64,000 nucleotides of DNA from Candidatus Woesearchaeota archaeon (GCA_043803105.1 JAZDKJ010000006.1:320001-384000), one strand, 5' to 3'. Shown: positions 18,915 to 34,477, numbered from the stretch's first letter. A program made the numbers and translations. The notes: generated by a model not told the origin, from the letters alone.

Positions 18915-19648
18915 GCGAAATAAAAGTACAGGAAAAGGAAGTAGTGACTCCGGGAGAAGTCCTTGCAGAAGGCATTGATTTCATCCCAAGTCAAGGAACA
19001 TACAGGCAGGGCGACAATCTCATGGCTTGCCGCCTAGGATTAGTCAGCATTGAGGGAAAGGTCTTGAAGATAATTCCCTTGAGCGGAAAATACCTGCCTA
19101 AGAGAAACGATGTGATCATAGGAAAGATCGTCGAGATACTCATAAGCGGCTGGCGCATGGAGACAAATTGTGCCTATCCAGCAATGCTCTCAATGAAAGA
19201 GGCAACCTCTGAGTATATTGCTCGAGGTGCTGATCTCTCAAAGTTTTTTGACATCGATGATTACATTGTCACTAAGATTGTGAATGTCACAAGCCAGAAG
19301 CTTGTTGACGTTACGATGCGTGGCCCTGGCTTGAGGAAACTCGTTGGCGGGCGCGTAATAATGGTAAACACCAACAAGGTGCCTAGAATCATCGGAAAGC
19401 AGGGCACTATGATAAGCATGGTCAAGCAGACAACAAACTGCAGGATTATCGTAGGACAGAACGGCCTTATCTGGGTCTCTGGTGATGATCCGAAAAATGA
19501 GCTTATTGCTGTGCAGGTGATTAAGAAGATTGAGGAAGAATCCCATTTGACTGGTCTTACTGAGCGGATAAAACATCTGCTTGAGGAAAAGACTGGGAAC
19601 AAGGTTACAGAAACTAAAGGTGATCAGAATCAGCTACAAGAAACGTGA
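18911..19648 (+). CDS. rrp4: Exosome RNA-binding protein Rrp4
   Basis: VVTPGE, YLPK..DVIIG, KVPRIIGKQG, IIVGQNGLIW. Confidence 0.96.
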   Translation: MSEIKVQEKEVVTPGEVLAEGIDFIPSQGTYRQGDNLMACRLGLVSIEGKVLKIIPLSGKYLPKRNDVIIGKIVEILISGWRMETNCAYPAMLSMKEATSEYIARGADLSKFFDIDDYIVTKIVNVTSQKLVDVTMRGPGLRKLVGGRVIMVNTNKVPRIIGKQGTMISMVKQTTNCRIIVGQNGLIWVSGDDPKNELIAVQVIKKIEEESHLTGLTERIKHLLEEKTGNKVTETKGDQNQLQET

Positions 19649-20330
19649 TGATGGTAGAGAATTTGACGAAACCAGGCCAATTGAGGCAAAGGCAGGGGTT
19701 ATCCCGAGGGCTGACGGTTCTGCCTACTTCAAGATTGGTTCAACTGAGGCTTATGCAGCTGTCTATGGCCCAAGGAATCTTTATCCTAGGTTCCTTCAGG
19801 ACCCTTCAACAGGCATTCTGAGGTGTCATTACAACATGATGCCTTTCTCAGGCTCGGGTGAGCGGGTTCGGCCAGGAGGCAGCAGGAGGTCAAAGGAGAT
19901 TTCTTCAGTCACAGAAAAGGCGCTTTTGCCTGTCCTTGACTTGACAGAGTTCCCTAATGCTGTTGTTGACGTCTTCATTGAGTTCCCGCAGACAGATGCT
20001 GGCTCAAGGTGTGCTGGCATTTGTGCAGCATCCATTGCCCTTGCTGATGCAGGCCTCTCGATGAAGGATCTTGTGAGCGCAATCGCAGTGGGTAAGGTTG
20101 AGGACAAGATTGTTGTCGACTTAAACTATGCTGAGGAGTCTCACGAGGGTGATGTTGCTGATGTGCCTCTTGCAGTCGTGCCCAGCACTGGTGAGATAAC
20201 CCTGCTTCAGCTTGATGGTCTCATTGACAAGGATGATTTGATCAAGGCTGTCAAGATGGGGATGGAAACGTGCAAGAAGATCAATCAAAAACAGCGCTTG
20301 GCGCTTAAGGAGAAGTACAGGTTAAAATGA
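19620..20330 (+). CDS. rrp41: Exosome catalytic subunit Rrp41 (start codon uncertain)
   Basis: RDDGR...RP, RADGSAY, AVYGPR, SRRSKEIS, DAGSRCA. Confidence 0.95.
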   Translation: MIRISYKKRDDGREFDETRPIEAKAGVIPRADGSAYFKIGSTEAYAAVYGPRNLYPRFLQDPSTGILRCHYNMMPFSGSGERVRPGGSRRSKEISSVTEKALLPVLDLTEFPNAVVDVFIEFPQTDAGSRCAGICAASIALADAGLSMKDLVSAIAVGKVEDKIVVDLNYAEESHEGDVADVPLAVVPSTGEITLLQLDGLIDKDDLIKAVKMGMETCKKINQKQRLALKEKYRLK

Positions 20331-21109
20331 ACAAGGACATGAAACAACATATTGAAGAGACCCTTTTGAAGGGTATTCGATTCGACGGTAGGGCCCCAGA
20401 CCAATACCGCGATATTTCTGTTGAGCTGGGTGTAACAAAAAACGCAGAAGGCTCTGCCAGGGTCAGGATTGGTGAGACTGATGTGATTGTCGGAGTAAAG
20501 CTTTCAATCGAAAAGCCCTTCCCTGATACTCCCGAGGAAGGCACTATGGCTGTGAACGTTGAGCTTCTGCCTTTGTCAAATCCAAGCTTTGAATCTGGGC
20601 CTCCGGGTATCCAGGCGATAGAGCTTGCTAGGGTTGTTGACCGGGGTGTACGCGAATCCAAGACAATTGACACTAAGCAATTGTGTGTTGAGAAGGGAGT
20701 GAAGGCTTGGTCAATCCTTATTGACATCTGCCCGATCAATGACTCAGGAAATCTTTTTGATGCCTCAAGCCTTGGCACTATTGCTGCATTGTTTGACACA
20801 AGGTTTCCAAAGTTTGACGGTACCGAGATTGATTACAAGGAGCACACTGACAAGCCCCTTCCCATGAAGATAATGCCTCTGGCAGTGACTGTTTATAAGA
20901 TTGGCAAGAGTCTAGTGGTAGACCCCTCGACTGAAGAGGAGGAAGCTGCAGACTCTAGGATTACTGTTTGTGCTACTGATGAGGGTAAGATTTGTGCTTT
21001 GCAGAAGGGAGGCAACCAGCCTCTCAGTATTGATGAATTGTCCCAGATGGTTGACCTTGCGCTCTCAAAGGTTAAGGAGCTGCGAAAGAAGGCAGGGGTG
21101 AAAAAGTGA
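20327..21109 (+). CDS. rrp42: Exosome subunit Rrp42
   Basis: RFDGR, AEGSARV, PFPDTP, ELARVVDRG.RES, LQKGG. Confidence 0.96.
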   Translation: MNKDMKQHIEETLLKGIRFDGRAPDQYRDISVELGVTKNAEGSARVRIGETDVIVGVKLSIEKPFPDTPEEGTMAVNVELLPLSNPSFESGPPGIQAIELARVVDRGVRESKTIDTKQLCVEKGVKAWSILIDICPINDSGNLFDASSLGTIAALFDTRFPKFDGTEIDYKEHTDKPLPMKIMPLAVTVYKIGKSLVVDPSTEEEEAADSRITVCATDEGKICALQKGGNQPLSIDELSQMVDLALSKVKELRKKAGVKK

Positions 21110-21869: not shown

Positions 21870-22130
21870 TCACTTGAGCGCAATCACCTGGAATCCATGC
21901 TTGTCAACATCCTTTTTGGTCCAGTACCTCATTTGCTTTGTCTTAAGAACATAGCTGACTTTCTTCTTTACCGTCCTGCCTGTATACTTCTTTTTCTTTG
22001 GGTCCCACTCCCTGAACACCATGATGTCTCCAGGCTTGCATTTAAAGTCATTCAGCCTCAAGTCAAATGTCTTTCTCTTTTCCTTTATTGCCTGAAAAGA
22101 TTCAGGCCAGCTTTTCTTTTCTATTATCAT
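21870..22130 (-). CDS. DUF3850/ASCH-like protein
   Basis: KSWPESFQAI...KTFDLR.NDF...GD...REW....YTGR. Confidence 0.85.
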   Translation of the reverse strand: MIIEKKSWPESFQAIKEKRKTFDLRLNDFKCKPGDIMVFREWDPKKKKYTGRTVKKKVSYVLKTKQMRYWTKKDVDKHGFQVIALK

Positions 22131-22894
22131 CCTATATAGCTCATGTCTTGCTTTTTCCCGCTTTTCTTGACAACATTTGATAGCTCTTCTGATCTCTTGA
22201 TTATGTCCTTTTCCACAGTCTCAATCTCTTTGTCAAGTTCCTCGAGCTTGAGTTTAAGCTTGAAGCGTGCCTTCAGTATCTTTAGTATTTCCCGTGCTCC
22301 CTTTACCCCGATGTACATCGGGTGCCCATAGGTTTCTGCAAGCATCGCAATACCTGAGATTTTTTTCTTGGGTGCCAGGCCTATGAGTAGTCCGGTTACT
22401 CCCATAATTGGACCAACCACGCCATAAAGATTGTTGTCCATTCCTGTGCCGTATTTCTTTATCACGTCCCTGCTGGTCGCTGTGCAATATACCTTTGGCT
22501 TCTTCGGGATATCTCCTAATCCGATACCTCCCAGGGTTATCAATTCTTTTCCGCCGAGCTCCTTGAAAAGGTCAAGTATCATTTCGCAGAACTCGTAGCA
22601 GCTCTCTTCGTCTATTGGCTGTATGTCTCCCACAAGGAACAGTAGGTCCTGGCTGTTGTGCTTCTTGTAATGCAATTCTATGCTTGGCAATTCTACCAGG
22701 TTCTTCTCATTTACAAAAACAGAGTGCGGAAATCTGTGTGAGCTGAATGAAAAAAGCCTTGTGGTTCCTAGCTTGTCCACAATAAAATCAACAGCCACCT
22801 TGCCAACATTTGCAATCCCTGGAAGGCCCTCAATCAGTATAGGATTCTTTAGCTTTGGTGTTTTTGTGATATTTTTGACTTTCCATAGTGCCAT
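22127..22894 (-). CDS. PAC2-family proteasome assembly chaperone homologue
   Basis: LIEGLPGIANVGK, GDIQP, ITLGG, GPIMGVTGLL, AETYG. Confidence 0.92.
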   Translation of the reverse strand: MALWKVKNITKTPKLKNPILIEGLPGIANVGKVAVDFIVDKLGTTRLFSFSSHRFPHSVFVNEKNLVELPSIELHYKKHNSQDLLFLVGDIQPIDEESCYEFCEMILDLFKELGGKELITLGGIGLGDIPKKPKVYCTATSRDVIKKYGTGMDNNLYGVVGPIMGVTGLLIGLAPKKKISGIAMLAETYGHPMYIGVKGAREILKILKARFKLKLKLEELDKEIETVEKDIIKRSEELSNVVKKSGKKQDMSYIG

Positions 22895-22989: not shown

Positions 22990-25044
22990 GTGCTCAGGGA
23001 ACTTGCCAATATGGAATCTAGGCAGGTGATGGCTGCTGTTGTCCTTGGGTTCTCTTCGCTTGTGGCCCAGCTGCTTCTGACCAGAGAATTCATTTCAGTG
23101 TTTTCAGGAAATGAGCTGGTCATAGGCGTCCTTTTTGCCAACTGGCTTCTCTTGACTGGCTTAGGCGCATTGCTTGGCAACTACTTTCACTTAAGAAAGG
23201 AGTCTGTTCTTGCTTTCTTGTTATTGGTGTTTGGGTTTCTGCCCTTCCTCCTGCTATTGGCATTAAGGCGGATTTCTACAGGTTATGGTGTTATGGTTAG
23301 CCTGCAGCATGTTTGGCTTTTCTCTTTTGTTATTCTGCTCCCTTTCTGTCTCTTGAGCGGCTTTATCTTCACCTTTCTTGCAGGCCTGCTCAAACGGGCT
23401 GGCAAAGTATATTCACTAGAAAGCCTCGGCTCTGTGTTCGGTGGCGTCTTGTTCGGTTTCTTCTTGATTTTTTATGCTTCACCCTTCCAGACTGCGCTCT
23501 TGATACTTGTGCTCAACCTCATTGTTGTGCTCTGGCATTCAAAACGCCCGGTTTTGTGGGTTTCGGTTCTTATCATTCCTGTCCTTGCAGGCCTGCTTGT
23601 TGATTTTGATCTCTTGAGCCTGTCCTGGCAGTTTCCTGGAGAACAAATCCTTTCCCATGAGAACTCGCTTTACGGTCAGGTCGTCCTGACCAATAGTTCT
23701 GGCCAGCTTAATCTTTACTTTGACAGGATTCCGATCCAAAGCTCGAACAGCACGATAGTTAGCGAGGAGTCTGTGCATTATGCCCTTTCTCAGGTTGCTA
23801 ATCCTCAAAAAGTTCTCGTTGTCTCTGGTGGCATGGGTGTTGTCCTTGAGGCGTTGAAATATCCCAATTCTTCCATAACCTATCTTGAGCTCGATCCTTC
23901 AATAATACGGTTGGCCTTTCCTGGTTTTGCAGATGAAAGGGTCAGCCTGATTGCCGCTGACGCAAGGTCATTTATTTCTGGCTCTGAGCAACGCTTTGAT
24001 GCCATCCTGATTAGCCTGCCAGACCCACTCAACGGGGAGATAAACCGCTATTATACCAGGGAGTTTTTCACAATTGCAAAGAAGCACTTAGCTCCGCAAG
24101 GGGTGCTTTCTTTGAGCCTTACTGGCTCAGCAGATTATATGAGCGAACAGACAAGACAACTTGCCTCTTCCGTACAGAAGACGCTGCACTCTGCCTTTAA
24201 CAACATTCTTGTTTTTCCTGGTGAAAGGCTATTTTTTGTTGCTTCTGATTCGAACATTTCATACGCCAGAGCCTATTCTCTCTCAAGCAGGGGAATACAG
24301 GCCAACTATGTTAACCAGCATTACCTCGACGCCAATCTTGCAGAGGACCGCTTGGCTTATGTGCAGTCTGCTGTCAATGAAAGCGCCTCTGTCAACACTG
24401 ACTTTAGGCCTGTATCATACTATTATGCCTTGCAGTCATGGATGAACCAATTTCCCATCAACCTGCCGCTTGTGCTTTTCATTCTCCTGTGCGCCTTGAT
24501 TGCATACTGTCTCTTTCTTGAGCCGCTGCAGTTTTCGATTTTTACCACAGGCCTGTCTTCCTCTGCACTCCAGCTTGTGTTACTCTTGTCCTTCCAGTCT
24601 TTATACGGCTATGCCTACTTTGAGATTGTTGTGCTTTCAACCAGTTTTATTCTCGGGCTTGCCTTTGGTTCTTTCTTGACTTCAAGGCTTGTGCTTCACT
24701 TCTCGAGAAGGCAGATATTGCTTACTGAACTGGTGATCATAGTTCTAGTCTTGCTGCTTCCCTTAACCCTGATGTTCTTGCGACTCCCAACACTTGATCT
24801 CATTATTTTTCCAACATTCTCCTTTGCCTTGGCTGTCTGTTGCGGCTCACAGTTTGTCATTGCTTCAAGGGAAGATTCTGCAATGCGCTCTGCAAGCAAA
24901 CTCTACAGCTCAGACCTTATAGGTGCAGCGTTCGGCGCAATTGCTGCCAGTGTTCTCTTAGTCCCATTGATAGGCCTTCTTTACACCTGTCTTGTACTTG
25001 CTTTGCTTAAGCTGTCAAGCTACCTTTTGATGAGGGCTTCTTAA
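22990..25044 (+). CDS. Multi-pass membrane protein with a central spermidine-synthase-like SAM-binding domain
   Basis: N- and C-terminal TM bundles (VYSLESLGS..G, LYSSDLIGA); SLYGQV, EESVH, KVLVVSGG, ELDP, DAR, FDAILISLPDP. Confidence 0.85.
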   Translation: MLRELANMESRQVMAAVVLGFSSLVAQLLLTREFISVFSGNELVIGVLFANWLLLTGLGALLGNYFHLRKESVLAFLLLVFGFLPFLLLLALRRISTGYGVMVSLQHVWLFSFVILLPFCLLSGFIFTFLAGLLKRAGKVYSLESLGSVFGGVLFGFFLIFYASPFQTALLILVLNLIVVLWHSKRPVLWVSVLIIPVLAGLLVDFDLLSLSWQFPGEQILSHENSLYGQVVLTNSSGQLNLYFDRIPIQSSNSTIVSEESVHYALSQVANPQKVLVVSGGMGVVLEALKYPNSSITYLELDPSIIRLAFPGFADERVSLIAADARSFISGSEQRFDAILISLPDPLNGEINRYYTREFFTIAKKHLAPQGVLSLSLTGSADYMSEQTRQLASSVQKTLHSAFNNILVFPGERLFFVASDSNISYARAYSLSSRGIQANYVNQHYLDANLAEDRLAYVQSAVNESASVNTDFRPVSYYYALQSWMNQFPINLPLVLFILLCALIAYCLFLEPLQFSIFTTGLSSSALQLVLLLSFQSLYGYAYFEIVVLSTSFILGLAFGSFLTSRLVLHFSRRQILLTELVIIVLVLLLPLTLMFLRLPTLDLIIFPTFSFALAVCCGSQFVIASREDSAMRSASKLYSSDLIGAAFGAIAASVLLVPLIGLLYTCLVLALLKLSSYLLMRAS

Positions 25045-25081
25045 CGCAAGTTTTTTATCTTGTATATGAACAATATGCGGT

Positions 25082-25777
25082 ATGTCTTATGAAGTGTTGT
25101 GTAATACTGGCGACTTTGTCCGGCTGAAGAACAAGATGGATGGAGACCTCACCCCTGAAGGGTTGAGGATTGCGTCTTCAGAGGTGTACATCATCAACAG
25201 ACATATCATGATTGATTCCGGTTCCAGAATGTATGCTGTGGTTCTCCTGGACACCCTAAACGCGCTAAGAATTTGGATTACGCACATCATCCCGACACAC
25301 TTGCATGCAGATCATCTTGGCTGGCCTGCCTATTTTCCTGAAGCAACAACCTGTATTAAGGGTGAATACATGGATATGCTAGAGAAAAACCCACTCGCAG
25401 TTCTTGATTACACTACAGGAAAAAACAAGATGACTGTTTCCGAAGATGCGTTAAAGCTCGCCAGCAATTTGCAGAAGTTCAGGAAGAAGCCTCTCGAAGA
25501 ATGCGTTTTGTGCGAAGAGGTTGATCCTGATAATTTTGGTTCTGTTATAGACGATAGGTTGCGTTACACTGTTGTCACTGGTCACGCCAGGTTTGATCTA
25601 GTGTTTTCCTACCGCAACTATATCATTCTGGGAGATTGTCTTGACATTTTTCTTCCTGAAAAACAGGCTTCGCTTCCAAGCGGCAAAGCCCTGTATAAGA
25701 AATTGAGGCGCAGGCAAAATAACCTGCAATTCTTCAGGGGTCATGAACCTTGGAGCAAGATTAGAAGCAAACTTTAA
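25082..25777 (+). CDS. Metallo-beta-lactamase-fold hydrolase
   Basis: IDSG, THLHADH, GH, GD, GH motifs. Confidence 0.85.
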   Translation: MSYEVLCNTGDFVRLKNKMDGDLTPEGLRIASSEVYIINRHIMIDSGSRMYAVVLLDTLNALRIWITHIIPTHLHADHLGWPAYFPEATTCIKGEYMDMLEKNPLAVLDYTTGKNKMTVSEDALKLASNLQKFRKKPLEECVLCEEVDPDNFGSVIDDRLRYTVVTGHARFDLVFSYRNYIILGDCLDIFLPEKQASLPSGKALYKKLRRRQNNLQFFRGHEPWSKIRSKL

Positions 25778-25782
25778 ATAAA

Positions 25783-26982
25783 ATGATTTTTTCTGTTGAT
25801 AGTATGAAAAAATCTTCCTTCTGGACAAAACCAATATCAAGGAAGGAATTTATCAAGAAAGGCGTGCTTGCTGCAGCAGGCCTAGGCATTAGCGGATATC
25901 TTCTTAAGGAGTATCTTGACAGCAGCCAATCTCTAGGCCTTGGTGACGCACCCGCTCCTAAATTGTGGAAATGGTCCAAAGAAGCATATCACTATGAACA
26001 GCTTGGTTTGAATGTGCAATGCCATGTTTGCCCTAACCAGTGCATGCTGGAAGAAAACGCACGAAGCATTTGCCGTAACAAGACAAACATCAAAGGCAAG
26101 ATGTACACTCTTGCCTACGGCAATCCTTGTGCTGTGCATCTTGACCCTATAGAGAAAAAGCCCTTGTTCCATTTTCTTCCAGGCTCTAAGGCTTTCTCCA
26201 TTGCGACTGCAGGCTGCAATTTCCGTTGCTTAAACTGCCAGAATTGGGAGATAAGCCAACAGTACCCTGAAAATACCTCAAACGAGGAGCTCTTTCCAGA
26301 TTCTGTAGTGCAAAACGCAAAGTCAACGGGTTCTCGCTCCATCGCCTACACATATTCTGAACCTATCGCCTATTATGAGTATATGTATGATACAGCCAAG
26401 CTTGCGAGGCAATCAGGCATTAAGAATTTATGGATAACCAACGGGCACATCAGGGAAGATGCTCTAAAGGACCTTGCCCAGTTTATCGACGCTGCAAACG
26501 TTAACCTCAAGAGCTTTAAGGAAAGCATTTATGGCACTCTCAACTCCGGAAGGCTTCAGCCTGTGCTTGATACCCTAAAGACCTTAAAATCAATGGGTGT
26601 CTGGTTTGAGGTGACAAACCTTGTTGTTCCCGGGTGGACAGACGACCTCGATATGATTAAGGAGATGTCTCAGTGGCTCTACAAAAACCTTGGACCTGAT
26701 TACCCACTGCATTTCTCTAGGTTTTATCCCTTGTACAAATTGGCAAACCTTGCCCAGACTCCACTCTCAACCCTGGAGAAGGCAAAAAAGATTGCTGTTG
26801 GCGAAGGATTGCACTTTGTCTATATCGGCAACACGCCTGAAATAGATGGAGAGAATACCTTGTGCTTCAAGTGCGGCAAGCTGCTTGTTGAGCGCAAGGG
26901 TTTTTCAGTGCTTCAGAATAACATAAAGGATAGTTCATGCAAGTTCTGTGGTCAGGGCATTGCCGGTGTATGGCAGGCTTAA
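25783..26982 (+). CDS. amrS: AmmeMemoRadiSam radical SAM enzyme with a Tat-like leader
   Basis: SRKEFIK plus hydrophobic stretch; CHVCPNQC, DPIEKKPLFHF.PG, GCNFRCLNCQNWEISQ, AYTYSEP, LHFSRFYP. Confidence 0.93.
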   Translation: MIFSVDSMKKSSFWTKPISRKEFIKKGVLAAAGLGISGYLLKEYLDSSQSLGLGDAPAPKLWKWSKEAYHYEQLGLNVQCHVCPNQCMLEENARSICRNKTNIKGKMYTLAYGNPCAVHLDPIEKKPLFHFLPGSKAFSIATAGCNFRCLNCQNWEISQQYPENTSNEELFPDSVVQNAKSTGSRSIAYTYSEPIAYYEYMYDTAKLARQSGIKNLWITNGHIREDALKDLAQFIDAANVNLKSFKESIYGTLNSGRLQPVLDTLKTLKSMGVWFEVTNLVVPGWTDDLDMIKEMSQWLYKNLGPDYPLHFSRFYPLYKLANLAQTPLSTLEKAKKIAVGEGLHFVYIGNTPEIDGENTLCFKCGKLLVERKGFSVLQNNIKDSSCKFCGQGIAGVWQA

Positions 26983-27542
26983 TGGTATCTTGTCTCAAAG
27001 GGCAATTCTGATTTTGTTTTCTGCCTTATCTCAAATTCTGTTAAGAACGGATACATTATGTGGAGTACCTCGTGTTTCTTTACCTCTTCAAAGTCCAGCC
27101 CGAAAAGGTGGTCTGCAATCTTAATTACTCCTGCGCCAGGATACGCTACCCCTAAGACTCCATGACCAAGCTGAGCCTGAGACACTTTCATTATTGTTAT
27201 GCCTGCAGGTGTGTATACAAAGAAATATTCTTGTGGCTTTTGGATGGCAGAAATGTTGTAATAGTACTGCGGCATCCTTGGTAGCACTTTCTTGTAGTCT
27301 GGCTGCCTTCTCTGCTTCTGAGCGCTTTCCATGCTATCGATTATCTCTTGTCCTGTTACCGCTCTTCCCCCAATCATGCTTTTTGGCTTTTGCAAGCTTT
27401 CTATGCTATTGATTATCTCTTTTTTTATTTTTTCTGGGTCCTCTTCGCGCTCACCAAACATGCTGTTTGTGAATTGTTGTTGAATATATTCAAATAATAG
27501 CTCGTCCACTTTAGGTCCAGAGGTTGAGTTGACAAATTCCAT
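26979..27542 (-). CDS. Hypothetical protein with C-terminal HExxH (possible zincin-like domain)
   Basis: GVLGVAY...I.I....EEVKKHEVLH. Confidence 0.65.
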   Translation of the reverse strand: MEFVNSTSGPKVDELLFEYIQQQFTNSMFGEREEDPEKIKKEIINSIESLQKPKSMIGGRAVTGQEIIDSMESAQKQRRQPDYKKVLPRMPQYYYNISAIQKPQEYFFVYTPAGITIMKVSQAQLGHGVLGVAYPGAGVIKIADHLFGLDFEEVKKHEVLHIMYPFLTEFEIRQKTKSELPFETRYH

Positions 27543-27595
27543 TGTTGTTTAAAAAATGAAAAAGTATAAATACCTTCTGAATAGGTTAATTCCAG

Positions 27596-29011
27596 ATGAA
27601 AAAGAGGCATATTGTCTGGATCGTTCTTGTGATATTGATTATTTTTATTGGGCTTGCAAGGACTTCTCTGCACTCGCCTTCATTAACAATAGCAACGACT
27701 CGTTTGCCTGCTGTTGCAGGCTCATGGTATCCTGGGGACAGAAATACCTTGAATAAGACAGTGTCAGATTATCTCTCAAAGGCTGATAATCTGGGTCTGG
27801 GCACAGTCAAGGCGATTATTGTCCCTCATGCTGGTTATGAGTATTCAGGCCAGGTTGCAGCCTTTGCGTTCAAGCAGCTCGCCAATGATTATGATAACGT
27901 CATTGTTCTCGGCACCAGCCATCATTTTCCTCTTGTTGGCGCTTCAACAGTGAATTACACATATTACAACACTCCTCTCGGCAACCTCAAGGTCAATCAG
28001 ATTCCTGGCATACCTGTCAGGAATGATGTTGACAAGCCAGAGCATTCCATAGAGATGGAGCTTCCTTTCCTTCAAACTATCTTAGGCTCTTTTGAGCTCG
28101 CTCCAGTTATTGTCGGCCGAGTCCAACCTGTAGATTTTGTTAAGACTCTTGAAGCTAATATTGATGAGAGAGCTCTATTAGTTGTTAGTGTTGATATGTC
28201 ACATTATCATCCATATGAAGAAGCCCTCAAGCTTGATAACTCGACCATCAATAATATCCTTTCATTGAATGCAAATGATATTTTCAGCAATGAGATTGAT
28301 TCTCCCTGGGCAGTCTCCACTCTCTTATTGCTTGCAAAAGAAAATGGATGGACTCCTCATTTGGCTAAATATGCAAACAGCGGTGATGTGACAGGAGATA
28401 GAAGCAGCGTCGTCGGCTATTCTGCGATTGTGTTCACTGAACAAACTGGTTTCACAGAACAAGAGCACGCTTTCCTATTGGATTTGGCAAGGAAAACTCT
28501 TCAATCCAAGCTTGCAGGCGGGACCTTACAGACAGTTGATGAGTCAAAGCTTTCTCCTGCTTTGCTTAAAGAACAGGGGTGTTTTGTAACGCTGAATGAG
28601 AAAGGCCGTTTGCGCGGCTGCATTGGTCATATATTGCCGCAGGAAGCCCTGTACAAATGTGTCATGGACAACGCGTTGAACGCTGCCTTACATGATTCAA
28701 GGTTTAATCCTGTTGCAGAGGACGAACTAAAGGATATCCAGATAGAGATTTCTGTTCTTTCAATTCCGCAACAGCTTGACTTCTCAGGGCCTGAAGACTT
28801 GAAGAGCAGATTAGTTCCCTTGCGTGACGGTGTTGTCCTGGAATCAGGCTGGCAAGGTGCGACTTATCTACCGCAGGTCTGGGAAGACCTGCCTGATAAG
28901 GAAGAATTCCTGTCCTCCCTTTGCGAGAAGGGTGGCGCTGTTGCAGATTGCTGGAAGGATGACAGCACAAAGGTCTACACCTACCAAGCAGAGGTGTTTT
29001 CTGAAAAGTAG
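27596..29011 (+). CDS. amrB: AmmeMemoRadiSam protein B (MEMO1) - protein A (AMMECR1) fusion with an N-terminal TM/signal helix
   Basis: R.PAVAGSWYP, PHAGYEYSG, EHSIE..LPFLQ, D.SHY; then GCFVTL...LRGCIG, ATYLPQVW. Confidence 0.92.
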   Translation: MKKRHIVWIVLVILIIFIGLARTSLHSPSLTIATTRLPAVAGSWYPGDRNTLNKTVSDYLSKADNLGLGTVKAIIVPHAGYEYSGQVAAFAFKQLANDYDNVIVLGTSHHFPLVGASTVNYTYYNTPLGNLKVNQIPGIPVRNDVDKPEHSIEMELPFLQTILGSFELAPVIVGRVQPVDFVKTLEANIDERALLVVSVDMSHYHPYEEALKLDNSTINNILSLNANDIFSNEIDSPWAVSTLLLLAKENGWTPHLAKYANSGDVTGDRSSVVGYSAIVFTEQTGFTEQEHAFLLDLARKTLQSKLAGGTLQTVDESKLSPALLKEQGCFVTLNEKGRLRGCIGHILPQEALYKCVMDNALNAALHDSRFNPVAEDELKDIQIEISVLSIPQQLDFSGPEDLKSRLVPLRDGVVLESGWQGATYLPQVWEDLPDKEEFLSSLCEKGGAVADCWKDDSTKVYTYQAEVFSEK

Positions 29012-29016
29012 CCTGG

Positions 29017-29310
29017 TCAACTTCGCGCCACTTCAGCTAGCGAAGGATCTAATCTGCGTAAGGTTTGGTAAAAAACAGAGGCTTCCACTACCATTCTCTC
29101 CAGACGGGAGGTTCTGTTATTCCTGCCTTCTTTCTCAAAGATCTGCGTAATCTCGTCATATTCCCAGGGATTGATTGTCATTCCTCTTCTCTCTGCTCTT
29201 TCCTTCATACGCTCTATGTAGAAGTTCATCAAACCTTCAAATCCACGTTCGGCAAAATAGCGTGCATGCTTCAAATCCCGCCAATCCTTAAAATAGGTTG
29301 TGTCTGTCAT
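29017..29310 (-). CDS. Hypothetical protein
   Basis: 97-aa ORF with TTTATAAA upstream. Confidence 0.5.
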   Translation of the reverse strand: MTDTTYFKDWRDLKHARYFAERGFEGLMNFYIERMKERAERRGMTINPWEYDEITQIFEKEGRNNRTSRLERMVVEASVFYQTLRRLDPSLAEVARS

Positions 29311-29349
29311 ACTACAGGTTTTTCTTCAAAGATTTATAAAGATTTTGCC

Positions 29350-30042
29350 TCAGTACCTGAACACCCATAAGAGCAGGATTCCAAATTCAAACAAAAGTAT
29401 CATCGGTATCATGACAAGGATCTGTGTCACAATGTCGACCCCTGGAGTGATTATTGCTGCAAGTATGGTAATCGCTACGTAGATATATTTTCTCTGCGAG
29501 CTAAACCATTTTGAATTGGCTAGGTTGAGTTTCACAAAAGTCAGCATTATTAGCGGTATCTCAAATATGAGTGCTGTGCTGTAGATGGTAATGAAAAGGA
29601 AGTTTACCAGCGCGTTAAGGCTCCAGATATTTGCTATTCCTGCCGAAGGTGCAAACGGTGTGATATATTTCATTGTCAGGGGCATGAACAGGAAGTATGC
29701 AAAGGCAAGCCCTGCAAAGTAAAGCACGATAAAGACCGGGATTATGCTGCGCAAAATTTTGTTTTTTTGGATTGCAGGCTTGACAAATTGCATCAGCTCA
29801 TAGACCATTAACGGTGTCGCCACAATGATGCCCAAGTACAGACCTATCTTCAATTGCACAATAAAATACTCTATAGGTGTGAGTACTATCAAGCTGGCTC
29901 CTGCACCCACAAATTTTCTTCTAAGCTCTGCAAGAATTGGTTGTGTCAGCAAAACTCCGGCAATAAAACAAGCTCCCAGAAAAACAATTACAACAATTAT
30001 TCGTGTCCGAAGCTCTTCAAGGTGCTCTATCAGGGGCTTCAA
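29350..30042 (-). CDS. tatC: Twin-arginine translocase subunit TatC
   Basis: PLIEHLEELRTR, LTP.E, FVKPA, FEIPL, RKY...AAIITP..D..TQ...P..LLFE. Confidence 0.95.
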   Translation of the reverse strand: MKPLIEHLEELRTRIIVVIVFLGACFIAGVLLTQPILAELRRKFVGAGASLIVLTPIEYFIVQLKIGLYLGIIVATPLMVYELMQFVKPAIQKNKILRSIIPVFIVLYFAGLAFAYFLFMPLTMKYITPFAPSAGIANIWSLNALVNFLFITIYSTALIFEIPLIMLTFVKLNLANSKWFSSQRKYIYVAITILAAIITPGVDIVTQILVMIPMILLFEFGILLLWVFRY

Positions 30043-30052
30043 TAATGCCCAC

Positions 30053-30226
30053 CTACCCTTTCAGCTCCTTGGAACTCTTTTTTGGTTTATCCTCAGAATT
30101 GACTGTCTTGCGGTACTCTTTCACAGACTGTCCTATTGCCCTCGCAAGCTCCGGAAGCCTTTTGGGTCCAAATAGGATGAGCACCACGATAAGAATCAGC
30201 AGCACCTCAGTCATCCCAACGGCCAT
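30053..30226 (-). CDS. tatA: Twin-arginine translocase subunit TatA
   Basis: MAVGMTEVLLILIVVLILFGPKRLPELARAIGQSVKEYRK (57 aa; not in the ORF track); GGGTGA ribosome-binding site. Confidence 0.95.
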   Translation of the reverse strand: MAVGMTEVLLILIVVLILFGPKRLPELARAIGQSVKEYRKTVNSEDKPKKSSKELKG

Positions 30227-30272
30227 CAAATCACCCTATCAACAAGACATACAGTTGGGATATAAATGTTTC

Positions 30273-33889: not shown

Positions 33890-33994
33890 CTCCCTAGTTT
33901 TCACAGTCAATTCCATCACTCAGGCAATTATTTATAACTGTTAAGTAGTTACAAAACCGTTAAATTTATATATTAGTTATTGTTACCACTTCTT

Positions 33995-34477
33995 ATGGCA
34001 CCAAAAATCTCACGCAGGGATTTTCTAAAAAATATAGTGAAAGCTGCGGTAGTAGTTCCACCTTCTTATGTAATTGGTACTAGCGTTGCTCATGCAGCCA
34101 GCAAAAAGCCACTCTTTGAAGGTACGATAGAAGGAAAGCTTGTCTCATACTACACTGGAACTACTGGTTGGATCTCAAACGACCCTGACAGGATGGAAAT
34201 CCGCAGCAACGATTTGCATGAGATTATCGAAGATTATGATAGGAACGAGAACATTGGCGACCACCCTGACGACAAGCTGACTGTCAATAATTGTAACGGC
34301 AAATTCACTTACACAAAGAATTTTATGATTGACAACCAGGGCAACAAGTATGCTGACGAAGGCATGATTGGATCAAAGGTTATGTGCGAGGCAAGGCGCA
34401 AGCTTTGCGATGCAAACAATGAGTACAGGCACCTAAAGTGTGTCATCGCCCAGATTATTGCAGACCGCGTTCGTTAG
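33995..34477 (+). CDS. Hypothetical protein with a twin-arginine signal peptide
   Basis: MAPKISRRDFLK...VAHA. Confidence 0.7.
   Translation: MAPKISRRDFLKNIVKAAVVVPPSYVIGTSVAHAASKKPLFEGTIEGKLVSYYTGTTGWISNDPDRMEIRSNDLHEIIEDYDRNENIGDHPDDKLTVNNCNGKFTYTKNFMIDNQGNKYADEGMIGSKVMCEARRKLCDANNEYRHLKCVIAQIIADRVR

Follow-up and report, generated by a model that had tools for sequence, protein, structure and literature searches.

Whether a system built around a radical S-adenosylmethionine (SAM) enzyme can operate outside the cytoplasm is the question raised by a locus at positions 22990-30229 of a 64,000-nucleotide stretch of DNA from Candidatus Woesearchaeota archaeon (GCA_043803105.1, JAZDKJ010000006.1:320001-384000); this whole stretch is referred to as the window, and positions are counted from its first letter. 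The locus encodes the three AmmeMemoRadiSam families, i.e., the radical SAM enzyme AmrS and a fusion of AmrB (Memo) with AmrA (AMMECR1) that we call AmrBA, as well as the TatA and TatC components of the twin-arginine translocation (Tat) pathway and a membrane protein in which a spermidine synthase (SpeE)-like domain is joined to a part resembling the major facilitator superfamily (MFS). The AMMECR1 and MEMO1 families, found from archaea to humans and tied to human disease, have no established biochemical function. Burroughs et al. 2019 reportedly proposed the modification of nucleotide bases or isoprenoids, and RNA base modification is proposed in PMC2034487.

With a probability of about 0.65, the locus encodes an extracytoplasmic, membrane-attached AmmeMemoRadiSam system, composed of an AmrS exported by Tat, an AmrBA exported by the general secretory (Sec) route and the MFS-SpeE protein as a docking platform. 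AmrS would fold and receive its iron-sulphur (Fe-S) clusters in the cytoplasm, would be moved across the membrane in its folded state by TatAC, and would probably remain tethered through an uncleaved leader. AmrBA would leave by the Sec route and be anchored by its N-terminal helix, and its bacterial counterparts would be periplasmic proteins or lipoproteins. The SpeE-like part of the MFS-like protein would lie on the outer side of the membrane and be the docking site for AmrS, with the contact next to the radical SAM cluster of the enzyme. An extracytoplasmic radical SAM system travelling with its translocase had been suggested in an initial annotation made from the sequence alone; this suggestion is supported by the co-occurrence of the genes within the phylum and by their linkage.

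Leader-type AmrS, AmrBA and the conserved module

The three Amr families are clustered, with the end of amrS at 26982 and the start of amrBA at 27596 (Table 1). The family model TIGR04337 aligns with residues 76-398 of AmrS, and therefore a leader of approximately 75 residues lies ahead of the family domain. The true start is probably M8 at 25804, and the database copy of the protein is an identical 392-aa record (P0001). AmrS shows an N-terminal Cys-rich motif, the radical SAM motif CNFRCLNC and a C-terminal Cys pair. Its leader has a basic n-region followed by S19-R-K-E-F-I-K25, the uncharged stretch GVLAAAGLGISGYLL and a Lys, and it departs from the twin-arginine consensus S/T-R-R-x-F-L-K in that one Arg is replaced by Lys.

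This departure can be judged against the 120 closest database matches of AmrS (57-69% identity, almost all of 380-430 aa), nearly all of which align from the leader onward. A strict pattern detected RR in 111 of them, RK in three (the window protein, P0003 and P0016) and no motif in six, i.e., five N-terminally short records and one protein with TRMQF. The consensus of these homologs is S/T-R-R-E/D-F-I/L-K followed by a Gly/Ala-rich h-region, which over 114 leaders has a median length of 16 residues, a mean Kyte-Doolittle value of 1.46 and a Gly plus Ala content of 37%; the residue immediately after the h-region is Lys or Arg in 94 of the 114, the median net charge of the n-region is +4, and A-x-A is found after the leader in 42. 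A basic n-region, a moderately hydrophobic Gly/Ala-rich h-region and a basic residue in the c-region are typical features of Tat signals, and the window leader fits this profile.

The motif was also inspected in the 80 related genome loci described below, where it appears as RR in 34, KR in 28, RK in five and KK in one; the pattern found none in 12, most of which are misses of the filter in which the motif is visible by reading. The KR form, S/N/D-K-R-x-F-L-K, belongs to Bacteroidota and Ignavibacteriota, and T-R-K-E-F-L-K is present in some Thermodesulfobacteriota. Some natural Tat signals are known to function with a single-arginine (KR) motif. RK and KR variants recur in several lineages, the RK of the window being one of the single-arginine forms of the family, and from these alignments its leader can be taken as a probable RK variant of the canonical twin-arginine signal. 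The reservation made initially, that RK in place of RR weakens the Tat assignment, is largely answered in this way, although the strict RR is indeed missing from the window protein.

Only two of the 80 loci, L059 and L061 from Bacteroidales, appear to encode a truly leaderless AmrS; both proteins belong to the clade of the leader-type enzymes, and neither locus has a gene for the membrane protein nearby. In L059 the AmrBA protein is also devoid of a signal, which suggests a reversion to a cytoplasmic form.

In AmrBA, the AmrB part comprises residues 36-280 (TIGR04336, cut-off 26) and is also recognised by PF01875 with 147.5 bits, and the AmrA part comprises residues 293-468 (TIGR04335, cut-off 99) and contains LRGCIGH and DSRF; the AMMECR1 motifs RGChG and DxRa are defined in PMC2034487. 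The protein begins with MKKRH and a 16-residue hydrophobic helix, IVWIVLVILIIFIGLA (residues about 6-21), of the signal or anchor type. A basic stretch and a transmembrane (TM) helix precede the fusion in six archaeal genomes, and a strongly hydrophobic N-terminal window was found in 51 of 58 AmrBA-like open reading frames (ORFs) of the related loci; of the seven exceptions, four are truncated by the end of a contig, and another is that of L059. Several bacterial N-termini read like signal peptides or like lipoprotein signals with a lipobox-like L-x-x-C.

At least 597 relatives were found in a scan of one genome per species, and the best 80 loci were used; four come from archaea and 76 from five bacterial phyla, namely Bacteroidota, Thermodesulfobacteriota, Ignavibacteriota, Verrucomicrobiota and Planctomycetota. 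The eleven proteins of the window were searched against all ORFs of these loci, many of the misses falling on short contigs. A homolog of the membrane protein was detected in 68 of the 80, nearly always directly upstream of amrS and on the same strand, and a homolog of AmrBA in 55; TatC and TatA were detected in two loci each, TatC being that of L002 (Aenigmatarchaeota) and L004 (Woesearchaeota). Apart from AmrS, these four proteins and the product of a 187-aa ORF, no window protein had a homolog in any of the 80 loci. Unsupervised clustering of the neighbours within 7 kb in 86 loci recovered AmrS in 84, the membrane protein in 70 and AmrBA in 59, and the next family in nine. The core module is formed by the leader-type AmrS, the signal-bearing AmrB-AmrA fusion and the MFS-SpeE protein. 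The gene arrangement is not due to chance, since this trio recurs in 59 to 84 of the 86 loci and tatA-tatC flanks amrBA in five further genomes. This exported variant, if such it is, is widespread among anaerobic bacteria and several archaeal groups, and cultured carriers exist, e.g., Mangrovibacterium marinum DSM 28823 (locus L030).

The same genome contains a second AmrS/AMMECR1/Memo set, which is leaderless and dispersed. For an AmrS tree of 83 proteins, obtained with a quick IQ-TREE search, the 80 loci were thinned to every second one, with the four archaeal loci added, and the loci of the phylum minus two duplicates as well as the two copies of this genome were included; the tree is unrooted, so that no direction of transfer is drawn from it. 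Archaeal and bacterial leader-type AmrS proteins group together in a single clade of 53 rows with a support of 99 in the Shimodaira-Hasegawa-like approximate likelihood ratio test (SH-aLRT), and the leaderless paralog is placed among leaderless archaeal AmrS proteins, also with an SH-aLRT of 99. According to this tree, the set predicted to be exported is a paralog of the ordinary leaderless set, and the organism has both forms.

The membrane protein and its modelled contact with AmrS

The spermidine-synthase domain PF01564 matches residues 256-398 of the membrane protein (cut-off 22.9). The AlphaFold2 (AF2) model of the whole protein, with a mean predicted local distance difference test (pLDDT) value of 88.5 and a predicted TM-score (pTM) of 0.88, consists of seven TM helices, a SpeE fold at residues 219-470 (the inserted domain spanning about 215-475) and another seven TM helices. 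A Foldseek search with this model returned aminopropyltransferases only, and these were aligned with the SpeE domain only (top match 1uir_B, E 3.9e-12, 285 columns). TM1-6 (residues 9-181) are homologous to TM9-14 (residues 510-679), with a probability of 97% and an E of 1.2e-10 in hhalign. The model of the N-terminal half has a pLDDT of 91, and its top 50 VIA matches were all MFS-type transporters (Z 16.0-11.8, root-mean-square deviation 2.9-4.4 Å, 158-184 residues aligned), although helical bundles reach a Z of about 14 by chance; no Pfam MFS model matched the membrane part. The number of Lys plus Arg residues per sequence, averaged over 64 homologs, is 2.27 at the N-terminus, 2.67 in loop 2-3, 1.53 in loop 4-5, 1.25 in loop 6-7 and 3.39 in loop 10-11, and 1.03 and 1.11 in loops 1-2 and 3-4; this bias favours a cytoplasmic location for the N-terminus and for loops 2-3, 4-5, 6-7 and 10-11, and the SpeE domain outside. 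Taken together, the 7+7 helices, the repeat of TM1-6 in TM9-14, the MFS matches of the half-fold and the charge bias point to an MFS-like protein of 6+6 helices whose central loop would have given way to TM7, a SpeE-like domain that faces outward, and TM8.

The acidic residues that bind ribose and adenine are retained in the domain, E300 in 61 of 64 sequences and D324 in 62 of 64. On the other hand, a hydrophobic residue occupies the acidic position of GGG[DE]G in 45 of the 64, and N, S or L stands in place of the first Asp of D-x-x-D-P in 40; in the window protein these segments read SGGMG and ISLPDP, versus GGGEG and IIDLTDP in 1uir. In SpeE structures, the former two acidic residues belong to adenosyl binding and the latter two to aminopropyl transfer. 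As judged from this pattern, the SpeE-fold domain is better described as adenosyl-ligand-binding than as an aminopropyltransferase.

An identity as aminopropyltransferase is not favoured, given that the equivalog models score far below their cut-offs (TIGR00417, 58.9 versus 249.55; NF002956, 131.4 versus 472; NF002010, 71.8 versus 260) and that the acidic residues of that activity are mostly replaced. In a broader form this alternative holds that the membrane protein is an ordinary membrane-bound polyamine aminopropyltransferase, or an exporter, that shares an operon with an exported AmmeMemoRadiSam set through a metabolic link, e.g., in polyamine or envelope modification, and that it has no physical contact with AmrS and does not supply it with SAM. 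Such a protein would account for the match to PF01564, for that to a PRK03612-type model over TM1-7 plus the domain, for a full SpeE fold that includes the N-terminal beta domain, and for the conservation of E300 and D324; besides the scores and replacements just mentioned, it is opposed by the strict co-occurrence of the membrane protein in full length (residues about 15-680 of 684 covered) with leader-type AmrS, the seven genomes that carry the one, of 201 in the phylum, being exactly those that carry the other, and by a complex model that favours binding, so that it is considered unlikely. The six other matches to the membrane protein in these 201 genomes are partial, with an E of 4e-16 or weaker.

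Two curated families are close to this protein. The membrane-bound polyamine aminopropyltransferase model NF002956/PRK03612 aligns with TM1-7 and the SpeE-fold domain (query residues 13-402), and NF037959, named 'fused MFS/spermidine synthase', aligns with the SpeE part only and falls below its cut-off (35.9 versus 40 bits), and all 38 aligned relatives match it at E of 0.01 or less (best 7.7e-22); the SpeE fold implied by this name is confirmed and the MFS half-fold is supported. Nevertheless, the window protein differs from both families in its scores, in the second 7-TM half that follows the domain, in the replacement of most of the aminopropyltransferase acids, and in its strict tie to leader-type AmrS.

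The complex of the SpeE-like domain (residues 205-490) with AmrS (residues 45-392, without the leader) was modelled, and its score for interactions from aligned errors (ipSAE) was 0.88 (0.87, 0.88 and 0.90 in separate runs), versus 0.00 for the best of three controls. The contacts agreed by at least 93% across runs, and the pLDDT of the partners was at least 93. Of 157 solved complexes, 116 attained the score mark applied, as did two of 215 mismatched pairs; because our own alignments were used, these counts apply only approximately. On the side of AmrS, the modelled interface includes an invariant DPIEKKP loop and residues 147-150, directly after CxxxCxxC. The modelled contacts involve residues 234-256, 380-388 and 439-457 of the membrane protein and residues 109-118, 147-150 and 308-323 of AmrS (numbering of the 392-aa protein). 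The model supports a docking of AmrS on the SpeE-like domain beside the radical SAM cluster motif; to our knowledge there is no solved complex of SpeE with a radical SAM enzyme that it could be recalling. If this binding is real, both partners must be on the same side of the membrane, in agreement with the two independent predictions of an outside location. In this regard, MFS-SpeE would be a new obligatory partner of the system, with a high-scoring modelled interface.

The possibility that the membrane protein handles SAM receives indirect support from the MFS-type fold, the retained adenosyl-binding residues and the modelled docking of AmrS. All catalytic parts are predicted to be outside the cytoplasm, and this would narrow the substrates to molecules of the membrane or the envelope. 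It could be tentatively proposed that the MFS channel carries SAM or a substrate across the membrane to the outward SAM-fold enzymes, and that the substrate is a membrane-lipid or envelope component. An equally speculative version is that MFS-SpeE exports SAM and hands it to the docked AmrS, and that Memo-AMMECR1 would then process the product on a lipid or envelope substrate.

Tat genes within the phylum and the side of the membrane

The distribution of the Tat genes was followed in a sample of 201 genomes of the phylum, in which AmrS exceeds its cut-off in 68, most of the frames having 330-360 aa and no leader. N-termini were read for 30 automatically collected loci and for all frames of at least 375 aa, and the other, shorter frames were taken as leaderless from their length. 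Leader-type AmrS was found in seven genomes (G000, which is the genome of the window, G035, G048, G117, G126, G170 and G174) and TatC in eight (G000, G013, G048, G066, G117, G126, G170 and G174), that is, TatC is present in six of the seven genomes with a leader-type AmrS versus two of the 194 others. In five of these genomes (G000, G117, G126, G170 and G174) tatA-tatC directly flanks amrBA at less than 3 kb from amrS; in G048 it lies beside amrBA on one contig, and amrS and the membrane-protein gene are on another. The linkage of tatAC in other genomes, which had been named beforehand as an observation on which the idea would stand or fall, was therefore seen, with tatA-tatC beside amrBA in six genomes that represent six different families of one order. 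Regarding G035, only 18 bp separate the end of its tatA from the edge of a contig of 4.6 kb, and tatC was probably lost in the assembly break. In addition, tatA-tatC adjoins the membrane-protein gene in L002, which belongs to Aenigmatarchaeota.

A comparison within one genus is provided by G199 and G126, whose AmrS proteins are sisters (SH-aLRT 100). G199 shows neither a leader on AmrS nor an upstream remnant of it, and it has no TatC, TatA or membrane protein; its AmrBA keeps the N-terminal TM helix. This genome is a natural case of joint loss of the leader, TatC and MFS-SpeE. As for bacteria, TatC is present elsewhere in the genome, not adjacent to the locus, in the five bacterial carriers checked (5/5). 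The expected co-occurrence of tatAC, leader-bearing amrS and the membrane protein is thus borne out in the archaea of this phylum, and the linkage part of it fails in bacteria.

Several points weigh against export. Both SAM and a low-potential electron donor would have to be available to a radical SAM enzyme working outside the cytoplasm, and how SAM and electrons would reach it is a question that this system poses; within 7 kb in the 86 loci, no further conserved gene that might act as electron donor or SAM carrier was found beside the three of the module. The genomes of the phylum are kin, and the counts given above overstate their independence. No tatAC genes were found beside any of the 76 bacterial loci, the TatC-bearing G013 and G066 are without the module, TatC was not found in G035, and other Tat-like leaders in the genome imply that tatAC is not exclusive to AmrS. 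The window leader carries RK rather than RR and was not matched by the Tat model PF10518 at E of 0.01 or less. The topology of the membrane protein is deduced from the positive-inside rule and by analogy to MFS transporters, and Z values near 14 can arise by chance for helical bundles. Finally, the modelled interface shows no excess of clade-specific residues (4 of 38 positions, versus 40 of 293 elsewhere).

Some of these points also favour a system that is membrane-associated and faces the cytoplasm, where SAM and reductants are found; in such a case the leader and the helix of AmrBA would be plain anchors, the SpeE domain would be inside, and tatAC would serve other substrates, for which there are Tat-like candidates in the genome. 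The separation of tatAC from the module in bacteria and the failure of the Tat model to recognise the window leader are consistent with this idea. Nonetheless, it is rather unlikely, because plain anchors would not explain the strongly basic n-regions, the basic residue that so often follows the h-region or the conservation of S/T-R-R-x-F-L-K far beyond the need of an anchor; likewise, the bacterial AmrBA N-termini resemble cleavable Sec or lipoprotein signals, the seven helices on each side of the domain together with the MFS-type 6+6 repeat put the domain opposite to the termini, and TatC accompanies the module in genomes of a phylum where it is otherwise rare.

It is unlikely that the adjacency of tatAC is only the inherited synteny of one archaeal lineage, with AmrS inserted by Sec/YidC or its leader a relic: the linked genomes all belong to one order, gene order varies and in G048 amrS and tatAC are on different contigs, but they represent six families, L002 has tatA-tatC beside the membrane-protein gene, G199 is devoid of leader, TatC and MFS-SpeE together, and it is an established property of Tat substrates that Fe-S enzymes are not exportable unfolded by Sec and then loaded outside.

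Relative to the canonical AmmeMemoRadiSam system, the locus passes the three models TIGR04335, TIGR04336 and TIGR04337 well above their cut-offs, and it shares the radical SAM CxxxCxxC and the AMMECR1 motifs RGCIG and DxRF, as described in PMC2034487. It differs in the Tat-type leader of AmrS, in the fusion of AmrB with AmrA behind a signal or anchor helix, in having MFS-SpeE as an obligatory extra partner, and in that the genome keeps a separate, leaderless and dispersed set while the leader-type AmrS forms its own clade. Rieske-type Tat substrates, which are Fe-S proteins held in the membrane by an uncleaved signal, share the Fe-S cargo, a motif of the S/T-R-R-x-F-L-K type and a moderately hydrophobic helix, and the cargo in the present case differs in being a radical SAM enzyme. 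By profile comparison, the nearest characterised radical SAM relatives are the PflA glycyl-radical activases (TIGR02493), which have the same subgroup core (52.9 bits), and 'pyruvate formate lyase activating enzyme' is the name given by the Joint Genome Institute (JGI) to homologs of AmrS. PflA-type activases act on a protein partner, which would fit the modelled docking of AmrS on a protein domain. Nevertheless, the score of AmrS is far below the cut-off of that family (52.9 versus 231.75), there is no glycyl-radical enzyme in the locus, and AmrS is predicted to be exported.

No published exported radical SAM enzyme was found in the literature searched, mostly at the level of abstracts. Likewise, no description of a leader-bearing, Tat-linked AmmeMemoRadiSam system with an MFS-SpeE partner was found in that abstract-level search, which did not include Burroughs et al. 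2019. The AmmeMemoRadiSam trio itself is already known, though uncharacterised. If the exported location is correct, this would be the first extracytoplasmic radical SAM system and would offer an experimental handle on the function of AMMECR1 and MEMO1; it would also help to explain why Tat is retained here and there in genome-reduced archaea. More speculatively, the pathway in these small archaea would be kept mainly for the AmrS machine.

Other ORFs with Tat-like starts were noted in this genome. A 165-aa ORF at 33980-34477 (+) of the window, 3.7 kb from tatA, has a canonical Tat-type start with SRRDFLK (APKISRRDFLKNIVKAAVVV...); no convincing family was found for it, PF10518 matching only at E 0.14, and from its sequence it is, besides AmrS, another candidate for Tat export encoded close to tatAC. 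A lytic-transglycosylase-like protein (G000:C8:101412-102368, minus strand; PF13406 SLT_2, 87.4 bits) has an RK-type leader, TRKQFV; such a protein is odd for an archaeon, and its target may be the bacterial cell wall. The remaining ones are a trypsin-like ORF with TRRKFIE in its leader (C6:439898-440698) and a 329-aa ORF without an assigned role, with NRRNFLQ (C12:144776-145765).

Genome, features and neighbouring genes

The genome has 1.56 Mb in 13 contigs, is 96% complete and belongs to a phylum of small-genome archaea; the nearest relatives of its AmrS are labelled Woesearchaeota, Aenigmatarchaeota and Nanoarchaeota by their sources. ORF calling, with families assigned by Pfam and NCBIfam, gave eight ORFs in the locus (Table 1). 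Every gene named in the initial annotation was recovered where it had been placed, and the two minus-strand ORFs at 26979-27542 and 29017-29310 were absent from its list. Both tatC and tatA pass their family models, and 10 bp separate them.

Table 1. Coordinates of the locus in the window (first nine rows) and of the dispersed leaderless set in the same genome (last three rows)
Feature	Position	Strand	Description
MFS-like 14-TM membrane protein with SpeE-fold domain	22990-25044	+	684 aa; PF01564 52.3 bits
Small protein of the metallo-beta-lactamase (MBL) fold	25082-25777	+	231 aa; PF00753 25.8 bits versus cut-off 22.7; HLHADH
AmrS radical SAM enzyme	25783-26982	+	399 aa; TIGR04337 349.1 bits versus cut-off 220
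Tat-type leader of AmrS	25804-25908	+	SRKEFIK 25837-25857; h-region GVLAAAGLGISGYLL 25861-25905, then Lys
ORF without family match	26979-27542	-	187 aa; contains HEVLH
AmrB-AmrA fusion	27596-29011	+	471 aa; TIGR04336 205.9 bits, TIGR04335 201.2 bits
ORF without family match, downstream of tatC on the same strand	29017-29310	-	97 aa
tatC, sole copy in the genome	29350-30042	-	230 aa; TIGR00945 155.4 bits versus cut-off 132.7
tatA, sole copy in the genome	30053-30229	-	58 aa; TIGR01411 60.8 bits versus cut-off 53.9
Leaderless AmrS	G000:C9:2097-3098		333 aa
Stand-alone AMMECR1	G000:C6:246479-247045		part of the dispersed set
Stand-alone Memo	G000:C10:25618-26454		part of the dispersed set

The MBL ORF is located between the membrane-protein gene and amrS. 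Its match to PF00753 is weak and restricted to the N-terminal 57 residues, with the HxHxDH motif present as HLHADH. The initial annotation had listed an MBL hydrolase among the genes seen at the locus; its presence is confirmed, but it does not belong to the system, because no homolog is carried by any of the 80 related loci or of 43 loci of the phylum. From this distribution, the gene is a lineage-specific local insertion outside the conserved module.

The 187-aa ORF overlaps the stop of amrS by four bases on the opposite strand, and its HEVLH resembles the HExxH of zinc proteases; a homolog was found in only one of the 80 loci, that of the nearest relative, L004. The 97-aa ORF had no family in Pfam or NCBIfam and no homolog in the 80 loci. 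No tRNA genes were found in the window. The flanks at 19581-21109 and 22127-22894 of the window contain housekeeping archaeal genes: directly upstream of the locus, on the minus strand, there is a protein of the PAC2 proteasome-assembly chaperone family (PF09754, 124 bits), and ahead of its gene two ORFs were judged by eye to be putative RNase PH-like exosome subunits.

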